From NCBI GenBank assembly GCA_029775855.1, contig JARVJZ010000003.1, forward strand, positions 162,416 through 226,415: DNA of 64,000 nt, written 5' to 3'. Under the pieces are notes generated by a model. It saw only the letters and a list, made by a program, of their open reading frames with translations. It ran no database searches and was not told the DNA's origin. The position numbers and the translations under genes are program-made. This stretch comes from Nitrososphaeria archaeon. GTDB lineage: Archaea; Thermoproteota; Nitrososphaeria; Nitrososphaerales; JAAOZN01. This document shows positions 29,856 to 32,801 of this stretch, piece after piece (position 1 is the stretch's first letter; each line of letters opens with the position of its first letter).

Positions 29856-32079
29856 CTACTCTTTATCAATGAATTCTTCTGCCCTAGGAGGCTCCTCAGG
29901 GAGTCCCTTCCTCTTTCTGATCTCTCTTATCACATTCATCATCATAGAGCTGGGAACAGGAGACCAAGCTTTGAAGTGTGTGTTCCATATAGCTTTACCA
30001 GCAGTAGCCCCACGCATAACTTCTGATAAGTCAAAGGTTTCAGAAGCAGGCACTTCACCCTCTATTATCGCCATAGTCTCCTTCTGAATTATATTCAAGG
30101 TCTTACCACGCTTAGCAGATATAACACTAGCAACCGCTCCAATCATGTCAGCCGGACATTTAACCTCTATACCCAGCATAGGCTCCAACAGAACAGGATC
30201 AGCTGAAAGCAGCGCACCCAGTATCGCTCTTCTTGTAGCTGGCATAAGTTGTGCATAAGTTCTATGAGCTGGATCTTCATGAGGCACAAAATGGTGGAGA
30301 ATAACTTTTACACCCCTAGTATATTCATGAGCCAACGCGCCGGTTATCATTACATCAACGAATCCAGCTCTAATCGAGTCTAAAGATTCTTGAAGGAATT
30401 GCACACCCTTCGTTAAGTCAAGTAGCAGATTACCTCTCTCATCTATAGCGACTACGCTTCTAGCTTCCTCAGCATCCCAGCCCTGCTCTCTAAGTATCTT
30501 GGCTATCTCCTTTCTATCTAAGTTTTCATTTATTCTCCCTGTTCTTATGAGGTTGATCTCATTTTCAGTTAATGGCGCCACCCTAATATAGATCTTGTTA
30601 TGCTTGTTAGGTGACTTCGCCATAACGGGTCCAGCTGAGCTTCTTATAGTTTCACGGTAGTTGATTAGCGGCTTTGATGTTATTATTTCAACACCTTGTT
30701 GCTGAATTAGTGTTGTTGCTATCTCGAGGTGTAGTACACCCATCCCAGACATAAGCATTTCACCCGTTTCTTCGTTGATCTTGATTACGAGGTTAGGGTC
30801 TTCTATGCTGAGCCTATGAAGAACATCAACTAACTTAGGTAAGTCCCTTGGATGCTTAGGCTCCACCGCCACGGTAACCACAGGTTCAGATACATACTTT
30901 ATCGACTCAAACGGGACAAGGTCTTTTATTGAAGATATCGTCTCACCAGCCCTAGCGTGTTCAAGCCCAAGCAGCGCTGGTATATTACCCGCACCAAGCA
31001 CACCTATTATCTCTCTATACGGTCCCATGAACATGTTGACAGATTGAATTCTCTCTTCTCTTTTAGAGCCTATAAGATATACCTTATCTCCATCTCTAAC
31101 GGTTCCCGAGAAGAGTCTACCAGTAGCGACTACACCTGCTTGAGGATCTACTACAACATTTGTAACCATCATAACTATGGGACCATTCTCATCACAGTTC
31201 AAAAGCGCTTTACCGACCTCTGAATCTAGATCACCTTTCCATATCCTTGGGATACGGTATCTTTGGGCTACATCTGGTGGTGGGTGATGCTTAATTACCA
31301 TACTTAATATCGCTTCGTGGAGCGGAAAGTTTTGAGCTAATTCTGAAGCAGTGCCTTTAGTGTATGCATCATATACGTCACTAAATCTTATCCCCTTCTT
31401 CTGCGCTATCTCAAGGTTAAATCCCCATCGGTCCTTGGCTGAGCCGAAGGATACGCTGTTATCTTGTATGCTGACCTTCCATTTCTCCTTGTATTCCGGC
31501 TCAGCGTAAATAGAGATAAGGTGATTAAAGTCATTCACTATACCTGCAAGCCACTGCTGCATCCGCTCAGGCGTAAGTCTTAGCTCCTTTACCAACCGAT
31601 CTATCTTATTAATGTAGAGCACCGGCCTAACCCTCTCTTCAAGCGCTTGACGGGTTACAGTCTCTGTCTGAGTCATGACACCTTCAACAGCATCTGTTAC
31701 GACAACAGCGCCATCAATAGCCCTAAGGCTCCTCGTAACCCTACCAGTAAAGTCTATGTGCCCCGGTGTATCAATCATATTCAAAACATAAGGTGTGTTA
31801 TTATACTCATAGTAAAGTGTGACGTTAGCAGCCTTGATGGTCATCTGCCTCTGCTGCTCGAGATCCATGTAGTCGAGGGCTAAAGCTTGCCCAGCTACAG
31901 AGGGGCTTAGTAGCCCACAAGCAGCAAGTAGGCTATCACTCATCGTAGTTTTACCGTGATCTACGTGGGCAATAACACCAAAATTATTCGGGCTAGTCCT
32001 TTGTGGGCTAAGCCTTTCGAATCTGGTTCTTATTGCCTATGATCTTCATGATTTCCGCTGTCGTCTTATACTTCGGCAT
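29856..32079 (-). CDS. fusA: Elongation factor 2; two exons (32079-32016 and 31984-29856), 730 aa after splicing
   Basis: Exon 1 MPKYKTTAEIMKIIGNKNQIR follows a GGTGG SD; exon 2 (N)FGVIAHVDHGKTT, DTPGH, NKID, diphthamide loop HEDPAHR. Confidence 0.95.
31985..32015 (-). other. 31-nt bulge-helix-bulge intron in EF-2 mRNA
   Basis: AGA/TTT - TTCG/CGAA helix - AAA and TAA bulges - GGCT/AGCC inner stem; removal gives CAG ATT CGA AAT TTT GGT. Confidence 0.9.
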
Positions 32080-32125
32080 CAGCCACCACCTTCCTTTGGT
32101 CTAACTATCAGCCCATATCCTCCAC

Positions 32126-32133
32126 TATTTATA
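32126..32133 (-). promoter_or_regulatory. TATA box of fusA
   Basis: TATAAATA preceded by an A-rich BRE-like stretch. Confidence 0.55.
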
Positions 32134-32159
32134 GGTGTTTACGCTTTTGCTCAAATATT

Positions 32160-32801
32160 CTACTCTATGTTCGCGTGCCTATTTCTCATCTCTTCCTCGC
32201 TGAGCCTATGTTTCTCAAGCAGTACTGATACTACCGCGTCGAAGAGCACCATACACGAGTCTTCGAATAATGTGCCTAGCGGCGCTAAGGGTTCGTGTAG
32301 CCCAAGTATCTGCCTCGCAAAGTAGTCTTCTCTACTCTGCTTATGATCCATAACCCTACCTTTCACAGTAACCTTTAGGTCTGCGAGTTTACCTATTGGA
32401 GAATCTGGAAAAGAGGTGACTGCGACTATTTCTGCACCAACCGCTTTGGCTGCCTCCGCTGCTGCAACTACGAGTTTTGTTGCGCCTGAGCCTGAGATTG
32501 CTATAACTAGGTCTTTTTCACCTATCGATGGGACGAGTGTGTCTCCTAGTATGTGGACTTGGTAGCCTAGGTGTAGAAGTCTAAGTGCGAAGGCTCTGCC
32601 AACCATTCCACTTCGCCCCGCTCCCATTACGAGAATCTTACTATCCCTATGCTTCATGATCTTCTCCACGAATAGCCCTATCTCTTCTTCTGAAATCTGC
32701 GATACGGTCTGGGTTATGAGTGTTAGAAGCCCTATCATACTACTCTTAACTTCTCCGCCGACCTCAGCAGCCAAGAATACACACTCAGCTTGTGGCGCCA
32801 A
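32160..32801 (-). CDS. hxlB: 6-phospho-3-hexuloisomerase (SIS domain); start uncertain
   Basis: [36 protein letters not shown]. Confidence 0.92.

Follow-up and report, generated by a model that had tools for sequence, protein, structure and literature searches.

A predicted tRNA-type (bulge-helix-bulge) intron in the elongation factor 2 gene of a Nitrososphaeria archaeon and its Thermoproteota relatives

How is elongation factor 2 (EF-2) made from a gene whose reading frame, as written in the DNA, stops at codon 24? The question is raised by a 64,000-nucleotide stretch of the genome of a hot-spring Nitrososphaeria archaeon (GenBank assembly GCA_029775855.1, contig JARVJZ010000003.1, positions 162,416 to 226,415 of the forward strand; hereafter the window, in whose coordinates all positions are given), where the archaeal EF-2 (aEF-2) gene, on the minus strand, is broken near its 5′ end into two open frames. 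Given the anatomy of the break and its conservation among relatives, we posit that positions 32015-31985 very probably constitute an archaeal bulge-helix-bulge (BHB, or tRNA-type) intron in the pre-mRNA of the single aEF-2 gene.

The two frames read as complementary pieces of one protein. The ATG at 32079 opens a 23-codon open reading frame (ORF; MPKYKTTAEIMKIIGNKNQIRKA) that terminates at TAG 32010-32008, and a downstream frame from 31982 (FGVIAHVDHGKTTMSD...) runs for 708 residues to a stop at 29856. The downstream piece (exon 2) alone matches the TIGR00490 aEF-2 profile with 855.6 bits (cut-off 738.45), and because the match begins at position 23 (23-719 of 720), the long frame lacks about 22 N-terminal residues; profile positions 1-22 correspond to exon 1, the G1 motif AHVDHGKT is present in exon 2, and by this match the gene product is identified as an archaeal EF-2. 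Excising 32015-31985 fuses CGA A/AT TTT (R N F), and the product joined in silico reads QIR-NFGVIAHVDHGKTT (...NQIR-N-FGVIAHVDHGKTT), a 730-aa aEF-2. Exon 1 (64 nt, 32079-32016) accordingly holds the ATG, 20 further codons (MPKYKTTAEIMKIIGNKNQIR) and the first base of an Asn codon; the predicted intron (31 nt, 32015-31985, with canonical cut placement, one of four placements that yield the identical peptide) holds the TAG (32008..32010) that stops unspliced reading at codon 24; and exon 2 (31984-29856) supplies the AT of the Asn codon and then FGVIAHVDHGKTT... to the stop. The junction peptide predicted from the spliced form, after ...NQIR, is NFGVIAHVDHGK, and IRNFGVIAHVDHGK is a peptide predicted for the spliced and not for the read-through product. 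The P-loop (G1) codons, 31947..31970, are connected to the start codon only once the intron is removed, and the earliest ATG, GTG or TTG in the exon-2 frame, at 31943, lies 3′ of them. The original prediction, made from the letters of the minus strand, had given these boundaries, the stop at codon 24 and the normal approach to the G1 loop after a 31-nt excision by the endonuclease cut rule; every string and position in it is correct.

Structurally, the sequence around the break can be drawn as a canonical splicing-endonuclease substrate, with two 3-nt bulges separated by a 4-bp helix and flanked by an exon-exon helix (h) on one side and an intronic helix (h′) on the other. The exon 1 strands of the two outer helices (32022..32037) are GGCAAUAA at 32037-32030 (DNA GGCAATAA) and ACCAGA at 32027-32022; those of exon 2 (31968..31983) are UUU.GGU at 31983-31977 (DNA TTTTGGT) and UUAUUGCC at 31975-31968 (DNA TTATTGCC), so drawn that outer helix I is GGCAAUAA/UUAUUGCC and outer helix II is ACCAGA/UUU.GGU. 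The central helix pairs exonic UUCG (32018..32021, within codons AUU CGA) with CGAA at the intron 3′ end (31987..31990), the 5′ bulge is AAA (32015..32017; predicted cut between 32016 and 32015), the 3′ bulge is UAA (31984..31986; predicted cut between 31985 and 31984), and the intron closes as an inner hairpin with its loop (31991..32014), GGCU...AGCC (GGCT 32014-32011, AGCC 31994-31991). Cutting after the second base of each bulge is predicted, in silico, to yield a functional joined RNA. Energetically, RNAfold gives -25.8 kcal/mol for the 81 nt from 32045 to 31965 versus -12.3 +/- 2.75 for shuffles (z = -4.9), and none of 200 shuffled sequences folds equally well.

The insert is confirmed as genuine, and the EF-2 gene as the sole copy in its genome. 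Contigs assembled from the DNA of two further hot-spring samples, one belonging to another study, cross the insert without a gap (run X2 record 6 over 31830-32800; run X3 record 8 over 31200-32699), and in the genome (1.5 Mb, 6 contigs, 98.4% complete) a search with exon 2 returned one EF-2 only, plus a 28%-identical GTPase; the DNA check that the original prediction had proposed is answered here by assembled contigs, and the second intact fusA copy that it had named as fatal to itself is absent from the assembly. At 32011, which supplies the fourth base of the inner stem, the contigs differ from the window (on the plus strand, A to C in X2 but A to G in X3), and neither has a listed change at the pairing partner, 31994.

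Comparatively, homologous inserts are common. A same-order sample of 40 genomes from 20 families gave 29 EF-2 loci, of which 16 carry an insert at site A (in the Asn codon that follows Arg, after its first base), four at site B (in the P-loop GK/T, interrupting the Lys codon), one an intein at GK/T and eight none, one of the eight (L006) having been scored by eye since masking hides its flank. Adding 80 named genome contigs and three further orders of the class brings the insert-bearing loci to 43, or 33 distinct EF-2 genes, which come from two orders of Nitrososphaeria; aligning the fusA 5′ ends of relatives, as had been suggested at the outset, thus bears the claim out. Their inserts measure 26, 28, 29, 30, 31, 32, 37 or 42 nt, are not multiples of three in 24 of the 33, contain an exon-1-frame stop in all 33, and on removal restore the same conserved peptide in all 33. 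Applied to the window, to the 33 distinct class-level sequences and to 23 loci from other classes, the cut rule restores ...QIRNFGVIAHVDHGKTT every time. In a test that allowed all placements giving the same peptide, the frame-restoring junction has four of four central pairs in 31 of the 33 distinct introns and three of four in the other two, against a chance control in which 2.2% of other placements in the same sequences (461/20849) have a 4/4 helix; the 5′ bulge is AAA or AAU throughout (33/33). The stop is the second codon past the junction codon in 23 of the 33 (TAG, TAA or TGA) despite differing stem sequence, and selection may have kept it as a means of terminating translation on unspliced mRNA. 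It usually falls at intron bases 6-8, as GGNNUAG, GGNNUAA or GGNNUGA.

Evolutionarily, it is the pairing that has been kept. In a MAFFT alignment (A1) of 25 distinct site-A rows, the basis of the row and cell counts given next, the central helix is paired in 22, the other three having CAGG/CCUG offset by 1 nt, and the canonical structure has 89.6% of cells paired versus 33-49% once the 3′ partners have been slid along by one to three columns. Two-sided changes affect seven pairs and 34 cells, a figure matched by none of 500 shuffles; because the alignment rows are related, shuffle counts overstate independence, and the slid controls and individual compensations are the firmer evidence. Among the latter, both sides have changed in 9 and 13 of 25 rows at inner-hairpin pairs 38-68 and 39-67; outer helix GGCAAUAA/UUAUUGCC becomes GGCAACAA/UUGUUGCC in five rows (pair 18-88), a compensated variant that couples a synonymous Asn change with an Ile-to-Val change; and the fourth inner pair goes from U-A to C-G within the window's own genus (L001 versus L003). 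In L019, L024 and L027 the synonymous exon change from AUU CGA to AUC AGG is matched by a change of the intron 3′ strand from CGAA to CCUG, the entire motif being displaced by one base, and a synonymous exon change to AUC CGA is accompanied by an intron 3′ strand CGGA. In genes with the intron the two exon-exon helices form on average 7.24 of their 8 and 5.76 of their 6 pairs, whereas the averages across 99 distinct intronless genes are 4.69 and 3.05; complementarity between the exons is specific to genes that carry an intron. As for the short first exon, 2293 synonymous versus 1991 nonsynonymous pairwise codon differences in 28 site-A sequences indicate that it is under coding constraint. Three intron-bearing loci (L009, L012, L027) have ACG or UCG at the position aligned with the start ATG.

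The machinery for such a reaction is encoded by the organism. The genome holds two EndA paralogs (PF01974; 97.2 and 82.4 bits, ORFs of 185 and 180 aa), whose loci are C1:250462-250695 and C1:5132-5386, and one RtcB (PF01139; 592.6 bits). What we take to be the catalytic-motif His is present in one EndA paralog and absent from the other, and the alpha/beta assignment depends on it. The two-paralog set fits the (alpha-beta)2 EndA reported for the group in the excerpts available of two sources (PMC4090602, PMC5829648). ARAGORN finds 33 tRNA genes only in the genome, 14 with predicted introns, and the remaining tRNAs probably carry non-canonical or multiple introns; several of the ARAGORN intron predictions are doubtful, one of them being 503 nt long. 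Within the window, Rfam at gathering thresholds finds no family and ARAGORN no tRNA. A scan of the genome for further BHB-interrupted genes, as proposed originally, searched for hBHBh′ motifs, covering strict motifs and exons of at least 10 codons; it gave 407 matches at loose and 105 at stricter settings and recovered EF-2, and the 24 of the 105 whose joined peptides were inspected include no further coding-like case of a strict intron merging two open frames. One match proved to be a false join inside an aldehyde-oxidoreductase-like gene. Because relaxed motifs and exons under 10 codons lie outside the scan, EF-2 is not established as the sole case.

Several observations stand against this reading or are neutral to it, and we set them together here. 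The minimum-energy fold has a 4-nt 3′ bulge (UAAU) and not the 3-nt bulge of the canonical alternative, in which UAA leads into two runs of three pairs with a single bulged U between them. On this point the relatives decide in favour of the canonical register, as originally drawn: the three bulge-adjacent pairs are kept in 25 of 25 rows each in the 3-nt register and in 18, 25 and 20 of 25 in the 4-nt register. Site-B introns hold their 3′ bulge within an internal loop, so that their motif is relaxed and not canonical. Metatranscriptome contigs from runs X7 and X8 of one study speak neither for nor against splicing: they cover nothing in 31858-32057, ending at 31857/31766 and restarting at 32058/32177, and so bridge the intron in neither spliced nor unspliced form, in a data set whose filter removes contigs of conserved genes. 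Searching metagenome contigs for exact copies of the 18-nt spliced junction returned no spliced copy of this lineage, the 25 matches comprising 22 by chance and three from intronless EF-2 of the ammonia-oxidiser type. Nor does a spliced-form protein occur among the 120 public exon-2 relatives listed, and the spliced N-terminus is missing from all 27 close calls (those at least 93% identical to intron-bearing loci). Lastly, the exon-2 frame of the window is open back through the insert, and one +1 shift could link the two frames.

This last point is the basis of the reading in which a programmed +1 frameshift before the TAG carries the ribosome through the insert and yields an EF-2 lengthened by about 10 residues ahead of the P-loop, and the exon-2 frame is indeed open from upstream of the frame-0 stop in 18 of the 33 distinct sequences. 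The shift needed, though, varies among close relatives (+1 in 18, -1 in six, and none, that is stop readthrough, in nine), and a single shift is unable to connect the frames in 15 of the 33, including a locus of the same genus (L004) with a 30-nt insert and an in-frame TAG. Insert sequence and length vary freely, what is kept being base pairing and not a peptide; no slippery motif of known type was seen by eye, and the combination expected of a frameshift site, the same shift direction in homologues and overlapping frames, was not found. We regard a frameshift as very unlikely. Translational bypass, the ribosome hopping over the 31 nt as it does in phage T4 gene 60, would account for a stop soon after the take-off region, a stable hairpin and a short gap. 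Bypass of the gene 60 type is defined by matching take-off and landing codons. Here the only placement at a codon boundary has CGA for take-off against AAU for landing, a mismatch, and what has been conserved is the make-up of an EndA substrate (4-bp helix, a pair of 3-nt bulges, exon-exon helices), which makes bypass highly improbable.

If the 23-codon ORF were instead a separate leader peptide, EF-2 would begin in or after the insert and be N-terminally shortened, much as the public calls have it (695 aa, or 714-728 aa beginning within the insert), and in L004 a start codon inside the insert does precede the P-loop. In the window, however, the first start codon in the exon-2 frame is 31943, and because this follows the P-loop a product started there would lack G1; moreover, exon 1 corresponds to residues 1-21 of EF-2 from intronless genes and shows coding constraint, and the aEF-2 profile contains these 22 positions, all of which renders a leader peptide very unlikely. 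That the gene is a decaying pseudogene or the insert an assembly artefact, as an ORF broken on naive reading might suggest, has a negligible probability, for this is the sole EF-2 of a 98.4%-complete genome, the insert recurs in independent assemblies, and it is found in 43 loci of two orders and in 23 other-class genomes with the remaining gene intact. A BHB intron, as claimed originally, is the reading that the fold (z = -4.9), the covariation and the four-of-four central pairs in 31 of 33 homologues bear out.

Phylogenetically, the distribution of the EF-2 intron within Nitrososphaeria is patchy. The EF-2 break is seen in 10 of 10 genomes of f9, a thermophilic family with closed genomes such as G011, and four of four of family f4, and in the second order (f24) a site-A insert occurs in eight of nine matched genomes (seven by full-length matches and G050 by a 5′ fragment, L154), the ninth having an intein. 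Among the 41 genomes matched in two other orders there is no small insert but there are five inteins, and no locus or row examined from the ammonia-oxidiser families (Nitrosopumilaceae, Nitrosotalea, Nitrososphaera) has an insert, an absence that is independent of the five rows flagged as unpublished (G387, G310, G351, G259, G165). An EF-2 tree (LG+G4, SH-aLRT support only, 52 similarity-thinned rows, midpoint root, no outgroup) requires six changes at site A, at least four of them forced by starred branches, and places the intronless ammonia-oxidiser clade as sister (98, starred) to intron-bearing f9 and f4. The tree is compatible with an old intron and several losses, and repeated insertion at site A is a possible alternative history; with neither an outgroup nor a species tree behind it, the EF-2 tree does not separate gain from loss.

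Beyond this class, we sampled 140 Thermoproteota genomes, 121 of them outside Nitrososphaeria, and fetched 23 other-class loci with a late-starting or stop-containing EF-2 match, leaving out six short or contig-end rows. All 23 have a canonical intron solution, so that introns occur in at least 23 of the 120 sampled other-class genomes having an EF-2 match; the families represented in the sample by closed genomes of 1.5-2.3 Mb show no EF-2 intron. Site A (Arg/Asn) is occupied in 14 of the 23, by introns of 29-39 nt with a central helix UCCG/CGGA, UUCG/CGAA or UUCG/CGAG. A new site C, between His and Val in AH/VDHGK, is used in six (L229-L233, L239; 30-33 nt; GCCC/GGGU or GCGC/GCGU), site B, within the Lys of GK/T, in one (L241; CGGG/CCCG), and a new site D, between Gln and Leu in EIEQ/LRQMT near residue 64, in two (L242, L243; GAGC/GCUC). 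Within Nitrososphaeria, the site-B inserts (L007, L008, L021, L022, L064) are 28-29 nt long with ACGG/CCGU or CGGG/CUCG. Inteins sit at GK/T of EF-2 in seven relatives (L016, L151, L166, L167, L175, L176, L179), in open frames of 1264-1372 aa with intein ends ...VHN/T, 1 nt from intron site B. The four intron sites and the intein site thus lie inside roughly the first 65 codons of the EF-2 gene, and the P-loop region is a hotspot for introns and inteins alike. The recurrence of the same codon in two Nitrososphaeria orders and in other Thermoproteota classes indicates an old family of EF-2 introns, a feature that is widespread in Thermoproteota and not peculiar to this genome. In a closed metagenome-assembled genome, L086, the EF-2 match covers 2958 nt for 708 residues, which suggests an intein or insert elsewhere in the gene, and in G104 (C4) the EF-2 match comes in two pieces, residues 1-582 and 579-733.

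Upstream of the gene, a TATA-box-like element, TATAAATA, inferred by reading the sequence, lies at 32126..32133 on the minus strand, 47 nt upstream of the ATG, and transcription is predicted to start near 32100; a piece of an RNA contig from run X7 terminates at 32100. That contig, X7 record 13 (493 nt, metatranscriptome), joins 31317, inside EF-2, back to 32100, linking an internal 3′ end to a likely 5′ end about 26 nt downstream of the TATA-like box, and could be a circular molecule, a chimera or an assembly artefact.

Mechanistically, exon 1 and exon 2 of the transcript would pair with each other in the two outer helices, the last bases of exon 1 and the intron 3′ end would form the 4-bp central helix between the two 3-nt bulges, and the intron would fold as the inner hairpin. 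A two-subunit EndA (alpha/beta) would then cleave after the second base of each bulge, and RtcB would ligate the exons and circularise the 31-mer. The joined mRNA would encode a 730-residue EF-2 with its N-terminal segment and P-loop intact, and ribosomes on unspliced RNA would halt after 23 codons at the intron TAG. We infer this mechanism because the anatomy, the comparative evidence and the cbf5 precedent support splicing. As to function, that translation capacity is coupled to tRNA maturation is speculation. In its fullest form, which we hold to be doubtful, the ancient, multi-site 5′ EF-2 intron set would be retained as a checkpoint: EF-2, and with it elongation capacity, would be produced only while EndA and RtcB have capacity left over, and the selected in-frame stop would abort translation of unspliced RNA. 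Such a checkpoint would be the archaeal parallel to regulated splicing of the HAC1/XBP1 type, with a core translation factor as its target.

EF-2 is an essential protein with a single gene copy, and it serves as a standard marker in phylogenetics. If the introns are spliced, many uncultivated Thermoproteota, and thermophilic relatives of the ammonia oxidisers as well, need their tRNA-splicing enzymes to make a core translation factor. Practically, the forecast that gene callers would report a truncated EF-2 is borne out by all 27 close public proteins among the matches listed, which are mis-started either after the P-loop (695 aa) or in the insert (714-728 aa, beginning MASPNDFGV... or MWAINRRFEWLSSNKLSPNNFGV...); a 719-aa call starting MKTKFERFNPNNFGV..., from a Nitrosocaldaceae archaeon, is similarly miscalled, at 83% identity to L017 and hence below the threshold. 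Public databases hold many wrong EF-2 proteins, with consequences for annotation, for estimates of completeness and for alignments of marker genes. The 5′ end of the EF-2 gene also offers a natural system for studying intron gain, loss and sliding in archaea, and splicing versus coupled translation.

A BHB intron in cbf5 pre-mRNA of Crenarchaeota was reportedly described by Watanabe in 2002 and by Yoshinari in 2006. It is also treated in the excerpts available of Yokobori 2009 (PMC2738675), which, like those of a later source (PMC7714728), have the cbf5 mRNA spliced by EndA. The same excerpts state that cbf5 was the only confirmed case of pre-mRNA splicing and that introns of this sort are overlooked or misread in annotation (PMC2738675), and that before a 5′ untranslated region (5′UTR) case in Haloferax cbf5 was the only mRNA BHB intron reported (PMC7714728); in the portions available of two further sources, the cbf5 papers alone are cited for pre-mRNA introns (PMC5829648, PMC12397907). 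Our search of full-text literature, with subscription journals and supplementary files outside its reach, found no report of an EF-2 BHB intron, and the original statement that cbf5 was known and EF-2 was not agrees with a literature that names cbf5 and one Haloferax 5′UTR.

Among known systems, the EF-2 intron resembles the BHB introns of pre-tRNA and pre-rRNA in its 4-bp helix, its two 3-nt bulges, its cuts after the second bulge base and its presumed enzymes, EndA and RtcB. It differs from them in that the substrate is an mRNA, and because the outer helices and half of the central helix are codons, protein and RNA structure constrain the same EF-2 bases. The P-loop inteins of ATPases and GTPases occupy the same conserved spot as the EF-2 introns; they are removed at the protein level, however, are more than 600 residues longer and represent a separate kind of element. 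HAC1 and XBP1 carry a short frame-changing intron (26 nt in XBP1) whose removal takes a protein endonuclease and a tRNA-type ligase, the spliced form being the functional one. There the endonuclease is IRE1, the substrate is a pair of twin stem-loops and not a BHB, and the reaction is stress-regulated, so that EF-2 is not a member of that family; unconventional HAC1/XBP1 mRNA splicing is mentioned in the available part of one source (PMC13149111). The Haloferax volcanii HVO_1309 intron, as far as the excerpts of its description go, shares with EF-2 an mRNA as the substrate of the splicing endonuclease, and its processing was confirmed in vivo and in vitro (PMC7714728). Unlike the EF-2 intron, it lies in an untranslated leader and leaves the frame uninterrupted, in a euryarchaeon with a different type of EndA (PMC7714728). 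The closest likeness, on the excerpted accounts, is to cbf5: in both, a short tRNA-type intron breaks the frame of a protein-coding gene in lineages with a hetero-oligomeric EndA, the gene is miscalled, and a patchy distribution implies gains and losses. In contrast to cbf5 as those accounts give it, the EF-2 intron lies in the first 22 codons, right before the P-loop, its motif is canonical hBHBh′ where that of cbf5 is relaxed, it has four sites in one gene across Nitrososphaeria and other Thermoproteota classes, and its splicing is predicted. On the sequence evidence, EF-2 would newly join cbf5 as a reading frame interrupted by a tRNA-type intron.

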